Assembly (NCBI GenBank): GCA_043814315.1
Contig: JBDRKE010000005.1
Span: 28,220-92,219 of the forward strand
Source of the DNA: Candidatus Omnitrophota bacterium
GTDB taxonomy: Bacteria > Omnitrophota > Gorgyraeia > Gygaellales > Profunditerraquicolaceae
DNA length: 64,000 nucleotides
Direction of reading: 5' to 3'
In this document: positions 6,001 through 33,305 of the stretch, piece by piece
How positions within the stretch are numbered: the first letter of the stretch is position 1
Layout: each line of letters begins with the position of its first letter
Program-made: the position numbers and the translations under genes
Notes under the pieces: generated by a model
The model's database searches: none
The model's input: only the letters and a program-made list of their open reading frames with translations
What the model was told of the DNA's origin: nothing

Positions 6001-8414
6001 AATTTACGTAATTCCTCTATGGCTGCTCTATGGCTAGAATCTCCGACGTCGTAAAATAATGTTTTAATGAGCATACTTTCCAAGGTTATCGCATTAATAT
6101 CACTCTTAGAAATAACCTTAACGAACGCCATTGGAAGCAAGTCTTTATTTTCATCACTTAGCTGCTCTTTTAGCGCCTTAAGCGTTTTTTGCTGTTCTTC
6201 ATTCAGCAAATGCTTTGCAGCCGCATCTCTGATTGTTTCAGAATAACGCTGATAATTTTTTGCATCATCGCCATAGTCTTCATTAATCTCTCCGAGTCTG
6301 TCTTTTCCTTTCGTTATTTCAATTTTTGATTCACTTAAATAAAATTTGTAATTATAGGGGAAATTTTTGGGAGAGGTAAGGTAAATATCAGAATCGTACA
6401 AGGTCACCTGCTCTACTTTTAATTTACCTTCCAGCAAGTTTTTGGCTCGATTGAAATGATATTTCCTGATAAGCTCTTTCCTGTTTGCTATCGTTAAAGA
6501 AAGAGTGACTATAACCGCAATAAGCCCCAGCATGCCGCTTAGCATTTTTGCCATAAGCAGATAATTTTCTTTCTTTTGTGTTTTATGATACTCTGCTTTT
6601 TGTAGAAGCGCATCCTCGATGGCTTGTCTATTTCTAATTTCTCTGCCGTCGTAAACATGCTTCGCATCTACAAACATCGCCCTATGCCTTCCCCAGATAA
6701 AACTGCCCCTCCAATCGGTTTGAAAACCTGCTTTATCATAGAGGTCTTTAACCGGCACTAGATAGACCTTTTCCGAATGTGCCTCATAGAGCGTATATTT
6801 TTCTGCCAGTAGGCTATGGCGTGTTTTTCGCAATGCCTCGTATTCTTTCTCCCCTTCTTCTTTATCCTTCTTGTCTTTGCCTTTGCGCGACTTCTGCCAG
6901 GATTGCTCTTGTTTAATGTATATTTCTTTTAAATCTTGGGGAAGGTTTTCAATTACAAAACTCTCGTAAGCTTCGTAATTTTGAAATTTTCCATATGTTT
7001 TCTTGGCTTTCGTTGTCTCTTCGGAAGCTTGGACTTTTTGAGGATTTATATTGACGGTGGCTAGTGCTGCAACTGTGCCCAGCCCCCACTTAAGAAAACC
7101 CCTGCGGCTGATTTCTTTGTCAACAATACCAGATTGATCTTTGCCTTGCATTGCCGAAGAGGCGGCTTTTTTCTCCATCGGCGAGCCAACAGTTTCTTGT
7201 TTTTCCAGAGGTATATGTTCTATAACTATGTCTCCTATCTCTGAGGGGCTGCCTATGTCTCCACCTTTAAACGAAATACCGATTATCCTCTCACTATATA
7301 GCGGAGGTTCTGGCCTGGCGGGACTGCCGGCTATAGTTCCGTTCTTGATAGCTCCCATTATCCCCCCTTCGCCTCCAGCTAATGGACTAAACGCAATCCC
7401 CCCTGAAAAATAACTCCTTATGGTCTGGCCAAAGGGAGTAGAAACTGGAACCTTCAGGTCGTACTCCCCCTCTTTGAAGGATCTCTGGTACTCTTTAAAA
7501 TACGTGCTCTTTGACCAAGGCGTCTTTGAAGTCAGGCCGTTGAGGTTACCTTTATCAATAAGATAGGAATAGAGGCCACCCTTGCCATAGAGCCTGGCCT
7601 TAAACCACTGGGCTAAGATTAAAGAGTAGTAAACCTGTCTTAGGGGAGCGTACCTTTTGGCGATGTTAACGTCTTTGGTTAATTTGGGGATAATGGATTC
7701 GCGAATAAGTTCGGATGCGTATTCATTAAGCTCTTTTAGCCGCGGGTCATCAAAGTTGTAAACAGCTGAGCCCTTCAAATAATCCTGCTCCAGCATGACT
7801 TTAAGGGTGGCCTTGTAAATATAGGCATTGTCCTGTGACTCCCGGATAATAATCTCACCCGGCACAATCCAGGGCCTGGTTAAGGTAGGAATCGTGATAT
7901 TACTTGTGCCAAAAAGCTCCTCTGCCTTTTGATAAAGCTTCTCCCAATAAACCTTGCCTTCGGGTGTTTGCGGCGAAGTGAACTTAGCCGTGTCTTTCTT
8001 AAGCTGCAGGTCTGCCTCCAGGAGGATTTTACCCGCATCCGTCCTGGCTAAGGCGTCGTCAATGACCTGGTCTTCTGAGTCAGGCCGAAGATTCACCCAG
8101 AAGCTGTCATTGGGAAGATTTATTCCCACAAAGAAATAGTTAAGCAGGGTGCGCGTTGAAACTTCAACATCTTGCTCTTTAATATTTTTTAAGTCTCCCC
8201 TGTCCAGGAGGAGCTTGAAATTATTATTGAGATTATCGTAGGAAAGGTAGCGTAAATGCAGGGGCCGAAATTTATCCGGGATGAAGGAACTACGCAGCTG
8301 CGCGATATGGCCTGAGATATCCAATTGCCCGGCAACCTGGGCAAAACCCGATTGCTCAAAGACAAAACAGAAACAAAGCAGAAGTGAAAAAAACCTTAGA
8401 ATCTTCTTCGACAT
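1..8414 (-). CDS. Giant secreted or membrane-associated protein, at least 2804 codons, C-terminus beyond window start
   Basis: Minus-strand frame starts at ATG 8414 (MSKKILRFFSLLLCFCFVFEQSGFAQ, a Sec-type signal peptide) and stays open to position 3. The ORF track lists no complete minus-strand ORF of at least 60 aa in this frame over 8.4 kb, consistent with one open frame reaching the edge. Hand translation shows an internal SRRGFLKWGLGTVAALATV segment near aa 430, a TM-like segment near aa 620, a long helical low-complexity region, and an HEIGH (HExxH) motif at nt 12-26. Confidence 0.8.
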   Translation of the reverse strand, partial: MSKKILRFFSLLLCFCFVFEQSGFAQVAGQLDISGHIAQLRSSFIPDKFRPLHLRYLSYDNLNNNFKLLLDRGDLKNIKEQDVEVSTRTLLNYFFVGINLPNDSFWVNLRPDSEDQVIDDALARTDAGKILLEADLQLKKDTAKFTSPQTPEGKVYWEKLYQKAEELFGTSNITIPTLTRPWIVPGEIIIRESQDNAYIYKATLKVMLEQDYLKGSAVYNFDDPRLKELNEYASELIRESIIPKLTKDVNIAKRYAPLRQVYYSLILAQWFKARLYGKGGLYSYLIDKGNLNGLTSKTPWSKSTYFKEYQRSFKEGEYDLKVPVSTPFGQTIRSYFSGGIAFSPLAGGEGGIMGAIKNGTIAGSPARPEPPLYSERIIGISFKGGDIGSPSEIGDIVIEHIPLEKQETVGSPMEKKAASSAMQGKDQSGIVDKEISRRGFLKWGLGTVAALATVNINPQKVQASEETTKAKKTYGKFQNYEAYESFVIENLPQDLKEIYIKQEQSWQKSRKGKDKKDKEEGEKEYEALRKTRHSLLAEKYTLYEAHSEKVYLVPVKDLYDKAGFQTDWRGSFIWGRHRAMFVDAKHVYDGREIRNRQAIEDALLQKAEYHKTQKKENYLLMAKMLSGMLGLIAVIVTLSLTIANRKELIRKYHFNRAKNLLEGKLKVEQVTLYDSDIYLTSPKNFPYNYKFYLSESKIEITKGKDRLGEINEDYGDDAKNYQRYSETIRDAAAKHLLNEEQQKTLKALKEQLSDENKDLLPMAFVKVISKSDINAITLESMLIKTLFYDVGDSSHRAAIEELRKFSDASEEVALYLFLYDNNTEGLIKRYAGKEKELIEQLVTKAAVAKYYNIYSQVKKALGTLIANKPDLFQLILGAFENAPQEEKDIRKGIITSLSKQSGFLVKNLEAILKQLNPALAYYVAEITILYRYFSHPDFLIEPILNGVFNDIFRSPELDKSKLTTEEFINKFSEEVLKNEKIDPGIKEQLLSYLLAEMPIYLFKEGLLRAIRLDTRLSIIFITYLIKHSNQSEFLSNLALFQAFNKELIPYLPAVKRIYSSMGDPALFIEETVNGTLNKAFKESGGDISKFIENVFISKEIGLELKQRFTEKYFSYFCTNKTILSAIQSDPTLSKSLINYWWQSPEHFTNTLRTTLEVFNPEIAPYTEEISRAFGLLDDPAFLIEKLLNRSLNDALNSSNGSLLEAVKSQPNRLSELISYLNQKPAIFFNGIESILKVVNPLLYSDIERVKAIYSSIEKPATLLIPGMINGSLNAAFINAKGKTHRFLRNVLEDNKIDVKLKAQLLKQSPSVMITRALEINIKLARYLKEKANNCEKPLERLSNPSFKSAINEIAYNLNREITLHPAEKRLGEDEKTSLLDVLFAAKDTIGIVKETFDKYFRNEPNQYYVPIPDLNALLEYVSIDKIKELIRTIGDDPKLSLDEMTRNIKQKLQGYPNAEFVLRRIEWILSNLFVLQQKIDELEPISQAMQLQGKNTYELRRVLQEIDKANKLAELNNIASDNKLNLIDILKLKLESILQEARESFLTDAIITLDMLSINEQQKEELFTELSVQYRYQPSESKNRIYLKILFNQSTDNSVILKLIDSLKGAGKIEGPKKAVFANKFLSDSRDTLVSNTLIFQYLEAIKTLLDDNQQKKEAWKQLRSLYQDRQYATTKLSYYPESITRTIAELFKQIELPKPAVQMPHIFFEALLRISPEMGSLNTIRQLIASMNANKGFRDQLATLKNKLYEQLVFFSGYSYDQKGELLSKLLKAISAEFDPSQIDNSDKFYDKLMFYLEQYSKAIDTYLKAQAKLFPEHINNEFGELSKAIIDDLLSTGQNNDSKINGLAEKLALIEADVLLARFKTQIKTIENEGEFLEKLKQYAAHNSRFKWTDHQGRNIYRLIDIYLRTISGAENGEIYNNIFEALRTEVGNDFKQWKYASNDYGATIDEIINIEAENLPQEEQALIKEAKGKAKKENTSLYEELKNIDGLKDLKERIEKIGNWQQTIQRRLEEGLTAEFTGDFYTLFNIGNYPGSTACQSCAYGNDLNRGLTGYLVNGTNKVVALLDANRRVITRRIVRLRILEDEQGIRQPAIFVEESSQFGSKGIDELYGVLDIVSQKTGLPVVASLYRPVQTTKVQQGVNKKYKIELFQGRSEFDYSDLYGNSVPGKINTGLYRQTDASITTGLFDLLVKPVSSSPVTETYFMASAGSPMEQAEGAAGSPIHIPSPLDSNMYLSQISGYLAKGTEYAYKIVEKNVSLKIAESRNPSRWNITFQEGRVSRQAAIQHASPWWTTASVAEEREKVVTLFVMCMQLVRIGEKSEQIWNLLSKASGQVKGIQEAIDDAQEGIDALTRILVKEKDELWPGKPGYRVTDRAAHDEYIKKGGWKLHLTVQPESYPKIDEWLWNNHKGQYKLLAGGDPGEKDFTVYVGSRDDVTLLIQRIARDKIDNLLEPSNAGSEDRLFTDKIAGRFDISSTRFGKRDFVYYGSSGVPFDREAADARFSGKLGGSYDQKAHVRRITNNLEKEYGGYFTGPQDKNWLQVIGAAGSPMEQKPKELDIDEMSYSQFYRNNSLEYVMGVLNGLPAETLKAQDESFLIRLLSNLVNKVRRDKDETKEQLVKEAIEQIIDKVLPEMGNNKAYKRFIDFIYTHFYYKFDIQSKETRKEGLAIVYPLAKELLDNTSLDLVDLLLSDNQFSLFVLKVYVRAAGIITIQHYPFLKNTENLKLIGDILNANRVDTDIQLGLARLAREEGQIIDQYRGGMSSGYKAGKDFLKEIKDAKDIKLLFEVLFHEIGHNVL

Positions 8415-23271: not shown

Positions 23272-24615
23272 TTATTGTTTAATAATTTGAATAACATGCT
23301 CTACTTTTTGTTTTAAGGCCTCATTCGTATTCAAGCCCCCCTTGATTTTATTATAAGAGTGTAAGACGGTCGTGTGATCTTTTCCCCCAAAATGGTCTCC
23401 TATCTCAGGCAAAGACAGCTCTGTCAACTCTCTGCTTAAATACATCGCAACCTGGCGCGGGAGAACAATGTTTTTGTGGCGGCGCTTGGTCTTAAGCTCA
23501 TGCAGTGATACCCCGAATTCTTCAGACACGCAACGCTGTATAAAATCTACCGTGATAAGCCTCTTGGGTTCTTTTAACAAGTCCTTTAAAACCTCTTTGG
23601 CCAGGCCCAACGTGATGGGCTCTTCTTCTAGTAAAGAATAGGCGATGGTGCGGATCAGCGCCCCCTCTAACTCCCTAACATTTGTTTTAATGAGTTGGGC
23701 GATGAAAAAAATCACTTCATCCGGAACGGTTACAGGCTCTCTTTCAATCTTTTTCTTTAAAATAGCCACGCGCGTTTCTAAATCAGGCGGCTGGATATCT
23801 GTGGTGAGCCCCCAACCAAAGCGCGAGACAAGCCTATCTTGCAAATTGGCAATTTCCTTAGGGGGTCGGTCAGAGGAAAAAACAATCTGTTTATGGGAGT
23901 CGTAAAGCGTATTAAAGGTATGGAAGAACTCTTCTTGGGTTGACTCTTTCCCTGCGATGAAATGGATATCGTCTATCATCAGGACATCCACATTTCTGTA
24001 TTTTTGCCGGAAGCGAGAAGTCGAATGATGCTGGATGGCGTCGATGAGTTCATTAGTAAATTTTTCCGACGATAGGTAGCAAATTTTAGGGTTGCCCGTA
24101 GATTTGCTGAGTATAAGGTTACAGATAGCCTGGATAAGATGGGTCTTGCCCAGGCCCACCCCCCCGTAAATAAATAAAGGATTGTACGCTTTAGCAGGAG
24201 AATCGGCAACCGCTAAAGAGTAAGCGTGAGCATGCCGGTTAGACGAACCCACAACAAAATTTTCGAACGTATAGCGCGCATTCAGGCTGGAGGTGTCGTG
24301 ATGCCCGGCAGCCTTGATGGTCAGGCCCGCCGGATTTAATGGGTCGCGCACTTCCCGTTTCTCTTTGATGCCGGATTCAAAAGATACGGCGATTTCTTGC
24401 TGGGAAGATACATGGCTCAGCGCCTGCTGGATGATGAGGCTATAATGTTTCTCGACCCACTCTCGAAAGAAATCATCCGGGGCCTCTAGAACTAAACCGT
24501 TCTTATTTTTTGTGCGCGGCGTTAAGGGCAAAATCCAGGTTTCAAAAACCGTATCCCCTAACCGTTCTTTTAAGAACCCATGTGCCTGCTGCCAGGCTTG
24601 GAGAATATCAGCCAT
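23272..24615 (-). CDS. dnaA: Chromosomal replication initiator DnaA
   Basis: AAA+ domain with GGVGLGKTHL Walker A, C-terminal DNA-binding domain, 447 aa. Confidence 0.95.
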   Translation of the reverse strand: MADILQAWQQAHGFLKERLGDTVFETWILPLTPRTKNKNGLVLEAPDDFFREWVEKHYSLIIQQALSHVSSQQEIAVSFESGIKEKREVRDPLNPAGLTIKAAGHHDTSSLNARYTFENFVVGSSNRHAHAYSLAVADSPAKAYNPLFIYGGVGLGKTHLIQAICNLILSKSTGNPKICYLSSEKFTNELIDAIQHHSTSRFRQKYRNVDVLMIDDIHFIAGKESTQEEFFHTFNTLYDSHKQIVFSSDRPPKEIANLQDRLVSRFGWGLTTDIQPPDLETRVAILKKKIEREPVTVPDEVIFFIAQLIKTNVRELEGALIRTIAYSLLEEEPITLGLAKEVLKDLLKEPKRLITVDFIQRCVSEEFGVSLHELKTKRRHKNIVLPRQVAMYLSRELTELSLPEIGDHFGGKDHTTVLHSYNKIKGGLNTNEALKQKVEHVIQIIKQ

Positions 24616-25045
24616 CTCAGGTTATGTACAGAATTAACAGCTTATTCACAACTTGTATAAATCTGTGGAAAACCAAAAACCATGCAAAAGCCAGTTTTAT
24701 TATACCCGCGCTAAGATAACCTGCAAGCCTCCCAAGAAATATACTTTAAAATACCATGGAATTTTAAACGAGGCAAGTAAAAAACATGTGTCCCTTTTTC
24801 ATGAGACGTTTAGCTATTATACATTAAATTTTTTTCCCGTCAACAAAAAAGGTAAATCATGAAAAAGCCTGGCCTGTTAACAATGCGCGGCCTCTTGTTT
24901 ATCTTGACCGCGACTTCTTTATTGATATAATAGGGCCTTCTACAACACGCAGCTTGGCCGGCTGGCTTTAACATACGAATGTGTTGACTTCAGGCGGCTT
25001 TGTGTTATAATTGGAAAACACATTTAAACCTATTGGGTAAAGCCG
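24616..25045. other. Putative oriC region between dnaA and rpmH
   Basis: 430 bp non-coding and AT-rich. DnaA-box-like nonamers are present (TTATTCACA at 24640, TGTGGAAAA, TGTGTTATAA), each with 1-2 mismatches to TTATCCACA. Location is the canonical rpmH-dnaA junction. Confidence 0.45.
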
Positions 25046-25177
25046 ATGAAAAAAAATTTAAATACTCCTACAAATATCGTCGGGAAACGTAGACACGGCT
25101 TTCGTAAGAAGATGGCCACTTCAGCCGGCCGCCGAACCCTGTCGCGTCGCCGCCGTAAGGGAAGAAAAAGACTTTAG
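25046..25177 (+). CDS. rpmH: 50S ribosomal protein L34
   Basis: [43 protein letters not shown]; 43 aa. Not in the ORF track because it is under 60 aa. Confidence 0.9.
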
Positions 25178-25403: not shown

Positions 25404-26927
25404 ATGGAAAAACGCTTAATATTAGCCATGGCTTTGTCTTTATTGTTGTTGTTAGCATGGTCGGCCATGATGCCAAAGCAGCAACATATTGATAATAAAG
25501 AGGTTAGGGATGATGACTTACCTTTTGTTGATGCTCCTGAAAAGACCCTCTCCTCTCTCTCTGCTCGGCCAAGCATAAAAGACGCCAAAGTTATAGAGTT
25601 TCACCAGGACAGGTACACTATTTCTTTTATAGAATCACTGGCTGCTATTAAAGAGGTTATATTTAATGATTATCAGTCTGCCGCACTCACTTTACAAAAC
25701 GGACTTTTGCTGGATGACACATCCCTTTCTTTTAGCAAGCAGAATAGTAGCGCGAATGAAATCAGCTTTTTACATCTTGACCAAAGTAGAAAGGTTATAA
25801 AAAAATTTATTTTTTCTAAATCTCTCTACGACATACAGTTAGAGATTACCATTGAAAACCTGTCGGATGCTCCCCTTACCTCACTATCCCCCCTTGTATT
25901 AGGAACGCTTGATTTCTCTTCCAAAAATCCTGATGCCCGCTATCAGGATGTTACCGTGGCTACTAAAGAAAAAGTTAAACATGAGAGCCCCAAAAAAGAC
26001 TTAAATTTAAAAGACGTGGATTTCCTGGCTTTACGAGATAGGTATTTTTGCGCGATTATTGAGCCTGAGCTTGGCCCTCTTGAAGGCTATATAAAAAAGG
26101 CAGGTAACCACGATTCTGAAATTGGCCTGGGCCCCAGGGCCATTTTCTTGCCACCTGGCCAAGCAGTAAAAGAAATATTTCATATCTATTTGGGGCCACA
26201 AGACTTAAAGCTAATTCAAGGCGTAAATTCAAGGTGGGCCGCAGTTGTCCATTATGGCACATTTGATTTTATTTCTCAGATTCTCTTGCAACTATTACAG
26301 TTTTTTTATGGCTTAGTCCATAATTGGGGTTGGGCCATTATTATTCTTAGCATTGCTGTATATCTTGCGCTCTTCCCTCTTAGTTTAAAACAAATGCGTT
26401 CTATGAAAGAAATGCAAGCCTTACAGCCCCACATTGAGGAGTTAAAGAGGCTTTATAAAGATAACCCTCAGAGAATGCAGAAAGAACAAATGGAGCTATT
26501 TCGTAAGCATAAAGTTAATCCTTTCGGAGGATGCCTTCCCCTGCTCCTTCAGATGCCCATATTTTTTGCCTTATATCAAACATTGATGCGCTCCGTATTT
26601 TTGCGTGGTGCAACTTTCTTGTGGATAAAAGACTTATCAGGCCCAGACCGATTGTTTAGCCTGCCTTTTCCAAAACCTTTTGATGCCTTTAACCTGCTGC
26701 CCATTTTGATGACCATCGGAATGTTTATTCAACAAAAAATTACTACAGCGTCTGCTACCGGCGGTAGTTCAGCAGAGCAACAGAGAATCATGATGATTAT
26801 GATGCCCCTTTTGTTTGGGTTTATTTTTTATTCTATGCCCGCAGGATTGGTTTTATATTGGTTTATTAATAGCACGCTCATGTTGGCAAATCAATTTTAT
26901 CAGTTGAACACAGGCCGAATAAAATGA
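25404..26927 (+). CDS. yidC: Membrane protein insertase YidC
   Basis: Signal-anchor, periplasmic domain, and the conserved C-terminal 5-TM core (LPLLLQMPIFFALYQ...). Confidence 0.95.
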   Translation: MEKRLILAMALSLLLLLAWSAMMPKQQHIDNKEVRDDDLPFVDAPEKTLSSLSARPSIKDAKVIEFHQDRYTISFIESLAAIKEVIFNDYQSAALTLQNGLLLDDTSLSFSKQNSSANEISFLHLDQSRKVIKKFIFSKSLYDIQLEITIENLSDAPLTSLSPLVLGTLDFSSKNPDARYQDVTVATKEKVKHESPKKDLNLKDVDFLALRDRYFCAIIEPELGPLEGYIKKAGNHDSEIGLGPRAIFLPPGQAVKEIFHIYLGPQDLKLIQGVNSRWAAVVHYGTFDFISQILLQLLQFFYGLVHNWGWAIIILSIAVYLALFPLSLKQMRSMKEMQALQPHIEELKRLYKDNPQRMQKEQMELFRKHKVNPFGGCLPLLLQMPIFFALYQTLMRSVFLRGATFLWIKDLSGPDRLFSLPFPKPFDAFNLLPILMTIGMFIQQKITTASATGGSSAEQQRIMMIMMPLLFGFIFYSMPAGLVLYWFINSTLMLANQFYQLNTGRIK

Positions 26928-27124
26928 AACCAAAGACGGGCATCGAAGTCGAGGGCACATCAGTTGAAGAAGCAATTAAGAAGGCATTAGCGCAACTAAG
27001 ACTGGCTCGCGACAAGGTAAAGATAGAAATCCTCTCCGAAGGAGTCAAGGGCCTTTTTGGAATGCCAGGCGCAAAGCCGGCCAAGATTCGAGTTACCATT
27101 ATTAAAGATAAAGAAAAGGCTTGA
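26924..27124 (+). CDS. Jag N-terminal domain protein (truncated KhpB/Jag, lacking KH and R3H domains)
   Basis: EVEGTSVEEAIKKALAQLRL...GLFGMPGAKPAKIRV matches the Jag_N domain. Only 66 aa, whereas Jag proteins are normally 200-250 aa. Confidence 0.55.
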   Translation: MKPKTGIEVEGTSVEEAIKKALAQLRLARDKVKIEILSEGVKGLFGMPGAKPAKIRVTIIKDKEKA

Positions 27125-27167
27125 CAAATCATAAGAATTTGAAGATAATTAATATAGGTTTTATAAA

Positions 27168-27215
27168 ATGTTCCCCGTGAAAATATTCCAGTTGGAACAT
27201 TTTCACGGGGAACAT
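27168..27215. repeat. 48-bp near-perfect palindrome (two 22-bp arms, 4-bp centre AGTT)
   Basis: atgttccccgtgaaaatattcc-agtt-ggaacattttcacggggaacat, one mismatch between arms. Lies between the Jag_N gene and the LAGLIDADG gene. Could be a terminator or an endonuclease recognition site. Confidence 0.6.
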
Positions 27216-27238
27216 TTGTATTAATTTCTTCAATCATT

Positions 27239-27688
27239 ATGTTGAATCCTTGGTATATAACTGGGTTTGCAGATGGAGAAGCAGCCTTTACTTACAGTAG
27301 GCAGGGAGGTACCTTCTCCATGTATTTTGCCATTAAACAAAGAGAAGACAATCAGCAAATAGTAGAGGAGATTCAAGGTTATTTTGATTATGTAGGGAAT
27401 ATTTATAAAGGAAAAGAATCAAAAAGTTATTTAAAAGGCGGCCTTACTAAACAATCTTCTTATTACCGGGTTACGAGAATTAATGAACTCAAGAGAATTG
27501 TAGAGCATTTTGATAGATATCCTTTGCAAAGTGGGAAAAAACAAGAAGTCTATAAGGCCTGGCGCGAGATGGTGATACACAAGCTTGAAAATTATCGAAG
27601 CATAGATTATGATAAACTTAGATATTTAGCAGAAAGACTTTCGCGCTTGAATACCCAAAGCCGAGCCTTTAAAGTGCATAAAAAATAA
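27239..27688 (+). CDS. Free-standing single-motif LAGLIDADG homing endonuclease
   Basis: N-terminal WYITGFADGEAAF is a canonical LAGLIDADG motif, present once, as in homodimeric I-CreI-like enzymes. 149 aa. Not within an intein or intron. Confidence 0.75.
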   Translation: MLNPWYITGFADGEAAFTYSRQGGTFSMYFAIKQREDNQQIVEEIQGYFDYVGNIYKGKESKSYLKGGLTKQSSYYRVTRINELKRIVEHFDRYPLQSGKKQEVYKAWREMVIHKLENYRSIDYDKLRYLAERLSRLNTQSRAFKVHKK

Positions 27689-28482
27689 TGGGTAAAATTA
27701 TCGCTATTTGCAATCAGAAGGGCGGGACAGGCAAAACGACCTCTGCTATTAACTTAGCTACCTATTTTGCCATCGGCGGAAAAAAAACGCTGCTTATTGA
27801 CTTAGATCCCCAGGCAAATGCCACCAGCGGCTTAGGGATAAACAAACATGATATTAAGAAAAGCACATACCACATTCTTCTAGAAGAATGTGGTCTTCAG
27901 GAGATTTTACAATCCACAGCTATAGCCAATTTAGTTTTAGCGCCATCCAATTTAGATTTAACTGGAGCTGAAATAGAGCTCGTAGGAGCTTTGGGCAGAG
28001 AGTATAGATTGAAGAGAGCGCTCTCAAAAGAAAAAGATAATTTTGATATATTGATTATAGACTCGCCACCCTCATTGGGGTTGTTAACTATAAATGCCTT
28101 ATGCGCTGCCAATAGTGTTCTCATACCGGTTCAATGCGAATATTATGCGTTAGAAGGATTAACGCAACTATCTAATACTATTAAGCTTGTGAAAGACAAT
28201 CTTAATCCGGCCCTTGCGATAGAAGGCGTGCTTCTTACCATGGCTGATTTTCGTACTAATTTAACCAAAGAAGTAATTCATGAAGCCAGGACTAATTTTA
28301 AAGGAAGGGTTTATGAAACAGTGATTCCCCGCAGCATTAGGCTCACCGAGGCACCGAGCTTTGGGAAGCCAATAGCCTTGTATGATAAAGATTCGATAGG
28401 TGCCATAAAATATGAGGAGCTAACGAGAGAGATGCTGGGGATTCCTATCGTCGCTCAATCTATAAAAGAAGGAGACACATGA
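27688..28482 (+). CDS. parA: Chromosome partitioning ATPase ParA/Soj
   Basis: KGGTGKTT deviant Walker A; 264 aa. Confidence 0.95.
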   Translation: MGKIIAICNQKGGTGKTTSAINLATYFAIGGKKTLLIDLDPQANATSGLGINKHDIKKSTYHILLEECGLQEILQSTAIANLVLAPSNLDLTGAEIELVGALGREYRLKRALSKEKDNFDILIIDSPPSLGLLTINALCAANSVLIPVQCEYYALEGLTQLSNTIKLVKDNLNPALAIEGVLLTMADFRTNLTKEVIHEARTNFKGRVYETVIPRSIRLTEAPSFGKPIALYDKDSIGAIKYEELTREMLGIPIVAQSIKEGDT

Positions 28483-29336
28483 TGGAAAGAAAAGCTCTAG
28501 GTAAAGGAATTGGTGCCTTAATACCTGAAAAGGAAACAGGGCGCAAGAATGAGATTGTTTATGTCCAATCTGAAGAAATAAAACCAAATCCTTTCCAACC
28601 CAGAGAAGACTTTGATAACCAAAGCATAGAAGAATTGGCACAATCCATAAAAGAAAAAGGAGTGATTCAGCCTTTACTGGTTAGGCGTAAGGCTGACTTT
28701 TATGAGTTGATAGCAGGAGAAAGAAGGCTAAGGGCTGCTAAGCTTTTGAACCTTAATGAGTTACCAGTTATTGTCAAGGATGTTGAGGATAAAGACTCAT
28801 TAGAATTGGCATTGATAGAGAATATTCAAAGGCAAGGACTCAATCCTATTGAAGAAGCACGTGCTTATCAACACTTGATGGATAAATTTCAAGTAACGCA
28901 AGAAAAGATCAGCGATGCCATTGGCAAGTCAAGGTCGGGAATTGCTAACACATTGCGTTTATTGAAGTTACCGCAAGAAATACAGGAGGAACTGAAAAAA
29001 GGGCGTATTTCTTATGCCCATGGCCGAACCCTGTTAGAAATAGAGGATGCTAATCAGCAGAGAAAACTGGCACAGATGGTTATCGCTAACGGCCTTTCCG
29101 TGCGTGAGCTGGAGAATTTAATCAAATCGCGCCGTATCAAAGGGGCAAAAAGAAGGATGGGGCCATCTGTGCATGATCCTCTTGTCGCCGCTCTAGAAGA
29201 AGAGTTGCAGCATATTCTGGCGACTAAGGTGAGGATCAGCAAGAGGAAGAAGCGCGGCCATATTCAAATTGAGTTTTATTCTCATGAAGATCTGGAAAGG
29301 ATCGTGAAAGTATTAAAAGGGAGCGTGAAAAGATGA
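28479..29336 (+). CDS. parB: Chromosome partitioning protein ParB/Spo0J
   Basis: ParB N-terminal box (LIAGERRLRAAKLL) and HTH; 285 aa; overlaps parA. Confidence 0.95.
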   Translation: MMERKALGKGIGALIPEKETGRKNEIVYVQSEEIKPNPFQPREDFDNQSIEELAQSIKEKGVIQPLLVRRKADFYELIAGERRLRAAKLLNLNELPVIVKDVEDKDSLELALIENIQRQGLNPIEEARAYQHLMDKFQVTQEKISDAIGKSRSGIANTLRLLKLPQEIQEELKKGRISYAHGRTLLEIEDANQQRKLAQMVIANGLSVRELENLIKSRRIKGAKRRMGPSVHDPLVAALEEELQHILATKVRISKRKKRGHIQIEFYSHEDLERIVKVLKGSVKR

Positions 29337-32254: not shown

Positions 32255-32327
32255 GGCGTGGTACCCAAGTGGTCAAGGGAGTTGTCTGCAAAACAACTAT
32301 TCACCGGTTCGAGTCCGGTCCACGCCT
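32255..32327 (+). tRNA. tRNA-Cys (anticodon GCA)
   Basis: Acceptor GGCGTGG/CCACGCC, anticodon loop CTGCAAA, T-loop TTCGAGT, discriminator U. Confidence 0.85.
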
Positions 32328-32459: not shown

Positions 32460-32542
32460 GGGCAAGTGGTGGAATGGCTTACACGATGGACTTAAAATCC
32501 ATTGGCCGCAAGGTCGTGAGGGTTCGACTCCCTCCTTGCCCA
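32460..32542 (+). tRNA. tRNA-Leu (anticodon TAA), type II with long variable arm
   Basis: Acceptor GGGCAAG/CTTGCCC, anticodon loop CTTAAAA, long variable arm, T-loop TTCGACT. Confidence 0.85.
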
Positions 32543-32619
32543 TGAAATTTTGCAAGGCAAAATTTCATCCCGAGCAGCGACAGGGAAACATATAGGCTGC
32601 GAGGGATTACCTTTTTTGC

Positions 32620-32697
32620 GGGCGCTTAGCTCAGTTGGTTTAGAGCGTTTCCTTGACATGGAAAAGGCCACGGGTTCGAATCCTGTAGCGCCCACCA
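32620..32697 (+). tRNA. tRNA-Val (anticodon GAC) with encoded CCA
   Basis: Acceptor GGGCGCT/AGCGCCC, D-arm GCTCAGTTGGTTTAGAGC, anticodon loop TTGACAT, T-loop TTCGAAT. Confidence 0.85.
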
Positions 32698-32705
32698 TAT
32701 TAAAA

Positions 32706-33305
32706 ATGTTAAAGAAAAAGCTACTGCAGAAACTGTATTACGATAAAAAACTTTCTATGTGGGATATCGCAAGAGTTATTTCAGTGACCCCTCCGACTGT
32801 TATATATTGGATGAAAAAGCATGGTTTAAAAAGACGCTCAAATAGCGAATGCGCTTATGTAAAGCAAAATCCAAACGGAGACCCATTTAGGATCAAAATT
32901 AAATTAACAAAAAATGATAAAGAACTTTTATTATGTGGCTTTATGTTGTATTGGGCAGAAGGAAGCAGGAAAAATAAACATACGATACAAATGGCTAATT
33001 TAGACCACAGGCTAATTTCGTTATTTATAAAATTTTTAAAGAGAATCTGCAGAGTTAAAGAAGAAAAGGTTTGCCTTAACATACAACTTTATAGAAGATT
33101 TGATAAAGAAATCACTAGGAATTACTGGTCAAGAATCTTAAAAGTTCCAAGGCGGTTTATCTCAGTCAACATACATTCTGATACAAGAAGCAAGCCTAAC
33201 AGTCAATGGTCGAAATATGGTATTGCCAGAATAGAAATTCGCAATGTGAAATTGAAACGGTGGATCGATAGTGCATTAGAGAACTATTTAGCTAAATGGG
33301 TTTAA
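32706..33305 (+). CDS. HTH-containing protein with a degenerate LAGLIDADG-like segment, inserted after tRNA-Val
   Basis: The track ORF 32550..33305 overlaps tRNA-Leu and tRNA-Val, so the realistic start is MLKKKL at 32706. The N-terminus has an HTH (SMWDIARVISVTPPTVIYWMKKHGL). LLCGFMLYWAEGS loosely resembles a LAGLIDADG motif. Followed by a tRNA 3'-end-like remnant. Confidence 0.35.
   Translation: MLKKKLLQKLYYDKKLSMWDIARVISVTPPTVIYWMKKHGLKRRSNSECAYVKQNPNGDPFRIKIKLTKNDKELLLCGFMLYWAEGSRKNKHTIQMANLDHRLISLFIKFLKRICRVKEEKVCLNIQLYRRFDKEITRNYWSRILKVPRRFISVNIHSDTRSKPNSQWSKYGIARIEIRNVKLKRWIDSALENYLAKWV

Follow-up and report, generated by a model that had tools for sequence, protein, structure and literature searches.

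Why should a gene for a homing endonuclease stand in the leader of a chromosome-segregation operon? The question is raised by a 64,000-nucleotide stretch of a Candidatus Omnitrophota genome (GenBank assembly GCA_043814315.1, contig JBDRKE010000005.1, positions 28,220 to 92,219 of the forward strand; hereafter the window), in which an open reading frame (ORF) of 149 amino acids (aa) with one LAGLIDADG motif lies between yidC-jag and parA, beside a long palindrome. Our answer, to which we give a probability of about 0.6, is that this is a free-standing homing endonuclease gene (HEG) of the homodimer type, lodged in the parAB leader between a promoter-proximal parS and the start of parA, and spread by homing. 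That the site between jagN and parA holds a mobile HEG appears highly probable, and the sequences tip the balance modestly towards parS as the target that the nuclease cleaves. The parts of the locus needed at the outset are these.

27121-27149, plus strand: sigma-70-type promoter, TTGACA-17-GATAAT, with 11 of 12 consensus positions matching
27239-27688, plus strand: nuclease ORF, 149 aa, with a single LAGLIDADG motif, Glu14 as its presumed catalytic acid and a Pfam match
27686-27690, plus strand: TAATG, the one-base overlap of the nuclease stop and the parA start, and the right-hand insertion junction
27688-28482, plus strand: parA, Pfam AAA_31/CbiA
28479-29336, plus strand: parB, Pfam ParB_N, HTH_ParB and ParB_C

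The encoded protein, which begins MLNPWYITGFADGEAAF, aligned with positions 1-101 of the 102 in the Pfam LAGLIDADG_1 profile (PF00961), scoring 50.5 bits where the cut-off is 23.1 (E 4.3e-13). Its AlphaFold2 model has the canonical topology (H4-14, E15-22, E25-35, H36-48, E54-58, E73-78, H81-93) at a mean predicted local distance difference test score (pLDDT) of 88.5. A structure search of the PDB returned 125 matches at E <= 1e-3, and the best 50 of these 125 were all LAGLIDADG enzymes; the closest solved structures were the N-terminal domains of I-PanMI and I-OnuI-type enzymes, together with the single-domain I-TnaI. The 149-aa chain holds a single motif in a single domain, which would imply a homodimer acting on a palindromic site. 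Homodimeric single-motif LAGLIDADG enzymes bind a pseudo-palindrome of about 22 bp and cut across its central 4 bp. Glu14 of the GFADGE segment, which we take from our own alignment to the family consensus to be the metal-binding acid that ends the motif, is kept in 75 of 75 unique proteins of the type encoded directly upstream of parA. The gene is under purifying selection, with a ratio of nonsynonymous to synonymous substitution (dN/dS) of 0.07-0.16. A protein search returned over 300 clusters with identities of 66-80%; almost all were exactly 149 aa long, and those with names were mostly Omnitrophota.

Because jagN and parA flank the gene and every Rfam hairpin hit fell below the gathering score, we regard it as free-standing, residing in neither an intron nor an intein. 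This agrees with the earlier note on this DNA, made from the sequence without database searches, which had described a free-standing single-motif ORF and had placed it between yidC-jag and parA. The gene has no paralogue within the 64-kb window. It is transcribed in the same direction as parAB, and the TAATG overlap, which recurs in 45 of the 66 loci with the gene directly 5' of parA, suggests translational coupling to parA. The promoter at 27121-27149, whose -35 hexamer contains the TGA stop codon of jag, is the native parAB promoter and now drives the nuclease gene too; its block, CTTGACAA...AAGATAAT, is kept in occupied and empty loci alike. At 35.6% GC (30.7% at third codon positions), compared with 40-42% in its flanks, the nuclease gene has a foreign composition.

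The strongest mark of mobility is the distribution of the gene. Occupied loci were found by nuclease searches of species-representative genomes (34 loci) and metagenomes (about 45 loci), and these roughly 80 loci are occupied at exactly the jagN-parA site. The 34 species-representative loci, labelled Omnitrophota apart from a few Planctomycetes or 'bacterium' entries and including the complete genome of Velamenicoccus archaeovorus, all share the order rpmH-yidD-yidC-(jagN)-nuclease-parA-parB-ndk, which the metagenome loci show as well. A second sample consisted of five JagN homologues on long contigs, picked regardless of the nuclease (loci L129-L149). All five of these lineages have yidC-jagN-parA-parB-ndk with an empty jagN-parA site and a spacer of 81-195 bp. 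In a neighbour-joining tree of YidC, ParA and ParB the five are scattered among carriers: L137 falls beside L002/L003/L013/L088, L143 beside L009 and L134 beside L072, and L129 and L146 lie near L086, L006 and L092. The comparison with related genomes that the earlier note had proposed thus uncovered empty sites interspersed with occupied ones. The nuclease gene is patchily distributed at one precise site, and this is the classic signature of a HEG.

A domesticated gene fixed across the phylum had been a candidate until the JagN-sampled loci proved empty, when it was dropped. It had been favoured by the identical position and high identity of the gene in every locus reached via the nuclease, by nuclease distances that track those of the flanks, by the dN/dS range, by the invariant Glu14 and by the frequent stop/start overlap. 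That impression was misleading, since all of the loci behind it had been found via the nuclease and the sample was therefore conditioned on presence. In three loci of 62-65% GC (L111, L117 and L118), nuclease-parA-parB(-ndk) is kept and jagN lies 2-4.5 kb upstream with other DNA between; their nuclease proteins are longer (168-172 aa), and the stop overlaps parA differently (-7).

Divergence of the cassette and of its flanks points in the same direction. Nuclease and flank distances are correlated overall (Mantel r 0.75, with 0 of 2000 permutations as high), compared with Spearman coefficients of 0.85-0.90 between pairs of flank genes. In particular pairs of genomes the two part company. The proportion of synonymous differences (pS) between L106 and L016 is 0.149 in the nuclease and 0.598 in the flanks (p 6e-16), with nucleotide identities of 92-96% and 78-84%, respectively; the corresponding pS values are 0.29 and 0.64 for L100/L020, and 0.32 and 0.65 for L015/L022. 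The pair L092/L006 departs in the reverse direction, with 0.465 in the nuclease and 0.199 in the flanks (p 7e-8). Since the list of pairs had been pre-filtered on low nuclease divergence, which biases most of its rows, only the extreme pairs and the reverse pair L092/L006 are persuasive. Discordance in both directions nonetheless indicates that the cassette was replaced independently of its flanks. In some genome pairs, identity profiles show that the similar tract comprises the cassette and about 100 bp upstream (the promoter region), and decays into the 5' end of parA.

We then turn to what the nuclease might recognise, for which the palindrome between promoter and gene is the natural place to look.

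27166-27217: near-perfect palindrome of 52 bp, in which three 16-bp dyad units overlap at 15-bp spacing
27169-27184: left parS-like 16-mer, TGTTCCCCGTGAAAAT, with 3 mismatches to TGTTNCACGTGAAACA; the left half and core of parS are kept and the right half is degenerate
27181-27202: P1, an inner 22-bp palindrome, AAATATTCC-AGTT-GGAACATTT, with its centre at 27190-27193
27199-27214: right parS-like 16-mer, ATTTTCACGGGGAACA, an inverted copy of the left unit

The earlier note had seen a palindrome adjoining the gene, correctly, and had given it 22-bp arms around a 4-bp centre (27168-27215); the arms in fact enclose those coordinates, at 25 nt each (27166-27190 and 27193-27217), with 24 of 25 positions complementary and 2 nt between them. 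It had missed the composition. The palindrome is built of parS-like 16-mers, and the chromosomal centromere site is therefore the likely target. The canonical forms of parS are TGTTTCACGTGAAACA and TGTTCCACGTGGAACA. Both parS-like units of the window carry 3 mismatches to the parS consensus TGTTNCACGTGAAACA, and they are the only two parS-like sites in the 64 kb; canonical parS is absent from the dnaA-rpmH spacer and from the rest of the window. The site lies about 3 kb from dnaA and immediately 5' of parA and parB, origin-proximal and parAB-adjacent. A search for further copies of the palindrome arm, which the earlier note had also suggested, allowed up to 3 mismatches and found none in the 64 kb.

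Full symmetry (unit, P1, inverted unit) is limited to the window and its close relatives L001, L069 and L089, so that the long hairpin is clade-specific; other occupied loci have two dyad units in place of three. The 52-bp palindrome is accordingly a clade-specific symmetric elaboration and not a conserved structure. What occupied loci have in common is the promoter block and, after it, a roughly 35-bp motif, AATGTTCCGCGTGAAAATGTKCCNNNNGGAACAYTT. Placing 92 unique copies in one orientation gave the consensus AAAATGTTCCannTGGAACATTTTCACGnGGAACATT for this two-part element, which consists of two overlapping dyads. One is a parS-like 16-mer, ATTTTCAC followed by GnGGAACA, in which 13-15 positions match TGTTNCACGTGAAACA and the CACG core is more than 90% conserved. 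The other is P1, with the consensus AAAATGTTYC-NNNN-GRAACATTTT over 22-24 bp and dyad-symmetric conservation out to +/-12 bp; its centre varies but avoids CG, the two middle positions being C in 5% and G in 4% of the same 92 copies. The two dyads share 5 bp, and this overlap accounts for the conserved degenerate half of the parS-like unit, namely its asymmetry of ATTTTCAC versus TGTTCCNC, with ATTTTCAC in place of TGTTTCAC. Across the 842 kb of loci retrieved, the two-part element matched nowhere except beside a nuclease gene. These features make P1 a candidate for the site at which the nuclease homodimer binds, or for its operator, and one that the enzyme probably could not cut; that the protein does bind P1 is a tentative suggestion, somewhat on the doubtful side.

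Empty alleles show the site without the cassette. They have the same promoter, then a single parS-like palindromic 16-mer such as TGTTCCGCGTGGAACA. In L134 this palindrome is AAAATGTTCCGCGTGGAACAT / AAAATGTTCCGCGTGGAACATAG and in L146 it is GATGTTTCGCGTGGAACAT / GCGATGTTTCGCGTGGAACATTG; by our count, both differ from the parS consensus TGTTNCACGTGAAACA at positions 7 and 12 only. The corresponding sites are ATAGTTCCGCGTGGTACATTTTG in L137 and ATAGTTCCTCAAGGAACATAG in L129. Beyond the site, empty alleles have a conserved parA leader, ...GCGTAACTATATAAAT.GCA-ATG, which in occupied alleles is replaced by a short leader and an ORF ending exactly on the parA ATG. The alignment below was made by hand and is backed by one clean pair, L146/L086, automated alignment being messy at 66-77% identity.

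Empty, L134: AAAATGTTCCGCGTG, a 15-position gap, GAACATAGCGTAAC
Empty, L146: GCGATGTTTCGCGTG, a 15-position gap, GAACATTGCGTAAC
Occupied, L086: CAGATGTTCCGCGTGAAAATGTGCCGGTTAGAACATTTATCTTA
Occupied, L008: AGAATGTTCCGCGTGAAAATGTTCGGATTGGAACATTTATAAGT
Occupied, window: AAAATGTTCCCCGTGAAAATATTCCAGTTGGAACATTTTCACGG

Occupied alleles have 15 extra bp within the right half of parS, after ...GCGTG, and the junction of this insertion lies within 1-2 nt of the top-strand cut predicted for a LAGLIDADG enzyme centred on the parS dyad. To judge from the letters, the 15 bp resemble a second, tandem copy of parS, set at a 15-bp period and now diverged. No single site in carriers combines two good half-sites with a CG centre, whereas one site does so in at least two empty lineages (L134 and L146).

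These observations can be assembled into a mechanism. The homodimer would recognise the intact parS palindrome of empty alleles, of about 22 bp (AAATGTTYC-(G/A)CGT-GGAACAT), and would cut across its central 4 bp. The break would be repaired from an occupied allele, so that the cassette would be copied and about 100 bp upstream, with a few hundred bp of parA, co-converted. The 15 extra bp of occupied alleles would split the site into two products. One would be the parS-like 16-mer, in which the CG core is kept and one half-site is degenerate, and on which ParB can probably still be loaded; the other would be P1, a palindrome of 22-24 bp with two good half-sites and a non-CG centre. Because neither product equals the full target, a carrier would, as we propose, be immune to its own enzyme. 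Lying between promoter and start codon, P1 may also serve as an autoregulatory operator, by analogy with I-TevI. The earlier note had offered three readings of the palindrome (the enzyme's own recognition site, a protected variant of it, or a terminator); the protected variant fits best, given the split site of carriers and the intact parS-like palindrome of non-carriers, and the terminator does not stand.

Homing at parS would be of wider interest if it extended beyond this type of locus. An exhaustive search of 50%-identity cluster representatives (E <= 1e-3) found 1069 relatives, among them a large and diffuse group of single-domain proteins, about 140-190 aa long, with 40-47% identity. In 36 loci outside the Omnitrophota type, ranging from 33 to 70% GC, the two-part element lies 10-100 bp 5' of the conserved DPWYVTG core, in either orientation and sometimes as two copies flanking a promoter; L045 and L046 have one copy on each side of the nuclease gene. 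Many family N-termini as annotated (METFSRGT, MGTFSRET, VETFSRGT, MFHVE, FHVKH, VPRGN) are parS-like DNA read in frame. Gene callers start many members (proteins P0125-P0260; L150 6001) inside parS-like DNA, often with the ATG at the centre of P1.

These relatives often lie beside parA on the opposing strand, and their contexts are varied. In L051, L055-L058, L060, L063, L068, L123 and the contig carrying P0151, the nuclease gene diverges from parA and parB, which read away from it on the other strand. A 478-kb contig has yidC-jag-mnmE-mnmG-rsmG, then the nuclease on the opposite strand, then parA-parB. The two-part motif also accompanies the nuclease where no par genes are in reach, as in L045 (beside xerC/D), L035 and L126 (bioD-mug), and L127 and L128 (Parcubacteria-related); one protein from a par-free context is also recorded from a Parcubacteria metagenome-assembled genome (MAG). 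On the forest-metagenome contig L126, an intact 154-aa gene (6001-6465) lies in the order bioD-nuclease-mug-rsmG, and in a Kofleriaceae MAG (L035, 3264-3521) an 85-aa remnant with an internal deletion occupies the same bioD-mug position, so that the pair looks like a snapshot of decay after invasion. L035 has three parS-like sites within 1.5 kb. Among 123 representatives of 50%-identity clusters (below 230 aa, with the motif located, from the 150 best family matches), the catalytic acid is kept in 72 and lost in 51 that remain full length, and one of the variants sits divergently beside parAB; such loss could mean that the genes decayed once fixed, or that the protein was put to new use in binding DNA. 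An origin on plasmids or phages was considered and rejected: tblastn with a family member matched no phage and gave just two weak hits, both to Peribacillus plasmids (30-36% identity).

Taken together, these loci allow the tentative proposal, for which the odds are somewhat short of even, of an undescribed and widespread family of homodimeric LAGLIDADG endonucleases that have parS as their natural homing site and compete with ParB for the same 16 bp. Were the family to home on parS in this way, ParB bound at the site could protect it, and the element would ride on the parAB promoter; in lineages without the catalytic acid, the protein may persist as a DNA-binding factor beside parS.

Several points weigh against homing at parS as we have described it, besides the pre-filtered list of genome pairs. 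The target is drawn from anatomy alone. The empty and occupied alleles that were compared are only 66-77% identical in their flanks, so that junctions are approximate and each lineage may have either gained or lost the gene, and the tree in which empty lineages fall among carriers is a neighbour-joining tree of YidC, ParA and ParB without support values. Three of the five empty lineages (L129, L137 and L143) have variant or multi-unit sites. In L143, at 2720-2800, three tandem parS-like units (TGTTGCCCGTAGAACA, TGTTTCCATAGGAACA and TGTTCCTCGTACAACA) lie 5' of parA where there is no nuclease gene; they could be the trace of a cassette since lost, or a parS array of natural origin. Since this nuclease-free locus has a P1-like unit, P1 itself may be no site for the nuclease but a degenerate parS of the ordinary kind, or what a lost copy left behind. 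Strong purifying selection, the position in the operon and the coupling to parA also fit a role that benefits the host, and 51 of the 123 family representatives remain full length without the catalytic acid.

Such a role could be that of a domesticated host factor, with the LAGLIDADG protein, no longer selfish, assisting ParABS by binding or nicking DNA, or regulating it, and binding P1 beside parS to tune ParB loading or parAB transcription. A dN/dS of about 0.1, the exact length of 149 aa in most copies, the place of the gene as first in the operon with its stop overlapping the parA start in TAATG, and the dyad-symmetric conservation of P1 between promoter and start codon would all suit it, as would the replacement of the catalytic acid in otherwise intact representatives, including the variant beside parAB. 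There is also a precedent of sorts in WhiA, a LAGLIDADG-derived regulator that targets parAB in Streptomyces (PMC3781837; PMC3384342). We still consider domestication unlikely. A function that the host needed should not go missing as readily as in the five of five unbiased relatives that do without the gene and are interleaved with carriers; moreover, the catalytic Glu is invariant in the clade, cassette divergence departs from that of the flanks both ways, the GC content of the gene is below that of its neighbours, and a decayed copy exists in L035. A slightly stronger competitor, though improbable in its own right, would make ParB the sole user of the palindrome and of the two-part motif, which would form a little parS cluster or a parAB operator, and would put the nuclease target elsewhere (for example the parA leader GCGTAACTATATAAAT), the proximity to parS being incidental. 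The units do match canonical parS at 13-15 of 16 positions, with the core conserved as expected for ParB contacts, L143 keeps its three tandem units without the gene, and the parA leader is conserved in empty alleles and replaced in occupied ones. Yet the motif accompanies the nuclease even in the five loci with no par genes in reach (L045, L035, L126, L127 and L128), and it is conserved across phyla, which the leader is not. The leader is also not palindromic, as the site of a single-motif LAGLIDADG homodimer roughly needs to be, and the asymmetry of ATTTTCAC versus TGTTCCNC is explained by the overlap with P1 and not by a symmetric ParB dimer.

Two further explanations fared much worse. If the palindrome acted as RNA, it would either terminate transcription of yidC-jag or form an attenuator hairpin within the 5' untranslated region. 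Its predicted hairpin is indeed very stable (-48.6 kcal/mol compared with -18.6 +/- 3.4 for shuffles, z -8.7), and a scan flagged a terminator-like site, on the minus strand only. An intrinsic terminator was nevertheless rejected, as the palindrome lies downstream of a conserved promoter, does not recur in the window and lacks its long stem at most orthologous occupied loci. An RNA structure or known RNA family was set aside as well, because differences between the arms are not compensatory across species and Rfam gave only sub-threshold matches to microRNA hairpins; a function as RNA is thus very improbable. Least credible of all is the proposal in the earlier note that insertion of the nuclease gene truncated jag by deleting its KH/R3H part. 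The jag gene of the window does adjoin the insertion and encodes 66 aa with Jag_N only (E 8e-21) in place of the Jag/KhpB architecture of Jag_N+KH+R3H, and tblastn found no KH/R3H segment in the window, a weak negative given that only two divergent Jag queries were used. The best 120 JagN homologues, however, are all 60-77 aa long and Jag_N-only (those with names being Omnitrophota), and the five nuclease-free lineages carry the same 66-aa jagN directly 5' of the promoter and parA. Since genomes without the nuclease have the same short jagN, insertion did not truncate it, a finding that the earlier note had itself said would overturn the idea. Outside Omnitrophota-type loci, jag varies in the opposite way: L126 (429-932) encodes a 167-aa KH+R3H product with no Jag_N match, and L150 (10606-11337) a 243-aa product with a weak Jag_N match plus R3H.

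The neighbourhood as a whole reads dnaN and dnaA, followed on the plus strand by rpmH, yidD, yidC, the 66-aa jag, a 114-bp spacer, the 149-aa ORF, parA, parB and ndk. The features of this order that lie outside the element are listed here.

23272-24615: dnaA
25404-26927, plus strand: yidC
26924-27124, plus strand: jagN, a stand-alone 66-aa Jag_N protein, given for context only

The dnaA-rpmH spacer (24615-25046) is likely the oriC region; it has three strong promoter-like sites, two on the plus strand (24904-24931 and 24984-25011) and one on the minus strand (24843-24816). A minus-strand ORF of 119 aa (26878-27237), whose product includes ...NVPRENVPTGIFSRGTF..., covers jag and the palindrome and is almost certainly spurious, because the palindrome reads open both ways. 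Further along lies a tRNA cluster (Cys 32255-32327, Leu 32460-32542, Val 32620-32697), which is followed and overlapped by a 251-aa ORF (32550-33305) with a helix-turn-helix-like stretch and a segment, LLCGFMLYWAEGSR, resembling a degenerate LAGLIDADG motif. This ORF had no Pfam match at E <= 0.01 and only chance-level NCBIfam matches; it may be a second, unrelated homing-endonuclease-like gene beside tRNAs.

The main interest of the parAB-leader element is that it suggests a selfish nuclease family specialised on the bacterial centromere. Homing endonucleases persist by means of highly conserved targets, usually rRNA or essential protein genes, and hide in introns or inteins. In this case the target would be the near-universal centromere parS, which is likewise conserved but is a non-coding site bound by protein; no splicing is needed, because the element slots between parS and parA. 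If this is true, it would be a new niche for selfish nucleases and a testable conflict between a mobile element and chromosome segregation, one that turns on whether ParB protects parS and whether it is still loaded on the split site. It could also explain some odd or duplicated parS arrangements beside parAB, and would offer a natural meganuclease scaffold aimed at a sequence found in most bacterial chromosomes.

A full-text literature search returned no link of LAGLIDADG enzymes to parS or ParB except the regulation of parAB by WhiA. The differences from described LAGLIDADG elements are the absence of an intron or intein, the location in a non-coding operon leader and the apparent centromere target. 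The homodimeric enzymes I-CreI, I-MsoI, I-CeuI and I-TnaI likewise have one LAGLIDADG motif per chain with a catalytic acid ending it; they reside in group I introns of rRNA genes and have coding or rRNA targets, whereas the present gene is free-standing in an operon leader with a putative centromere target. I-OnuI and I-PanMI are the best matches in sequence and structure (profile E 9e-16 to I-PanMI; Foldseek E 4e-9) and share the motifs NPW(Y/F)VTGF.D.E..F and HFDKYPL with our protein. They are, however, monomeric pseudo-dimers of about 300 aa from fungal mitochondrial introns with asymmetric targets, and only their N-terminal domain aligns to it. Chromosomal parS provides the likeness on the target side, with 16-bp dyad units matching TGTTNCACGTGAAACA beside parAB, about 3 kb from dnaA, and a single unit in empty alleles. 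In occupied alleles, by contrast, the site is split, shares bases with a second palindrome and shows conserved degeneracy in one of its half-sites.

In lifestyle, the nearest comparison is with the free-standing HEGs of phages (T4 Seg, Mob and I-TevIII-like genes), known for 'intronless homing'. They sit between host genes, spread by double-strand-break repair with co-conversion and are patchy among relatives, and carriers are protected by differences in the target sequence. The present gene resembles them in its insertion between genes, its patchiness and its co-conversion; they are GIY-YIG or HNH enzymes of phage genomes, whereas this is a LAGLIDADG enzyme of bacterial chromosomes. The operator of I-TevI resembles its homing site but stays uncut. 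I-TevI, itself a GIY-YIG enzyme, binds this operator at its own promoter and so represses itself (PMC3384342); by analogy, P1, which has a non-CG centre and lies after the promoter and ahead of the start codon, would serve as such an operator. WhiA (DUF199), finally, is a LAGLIDADG-derived protein tied to parAB expression in Streptomyces (PMC3781837; PMC3384342). It has two LAGLIDADG domains and a helix-turn-helix, lacks catalytic acids and is universal in Gram-positive bacteria, whereas the protein described here has one domain and no helix-turn-helix, keeps Glu14 and is patchily distributed.

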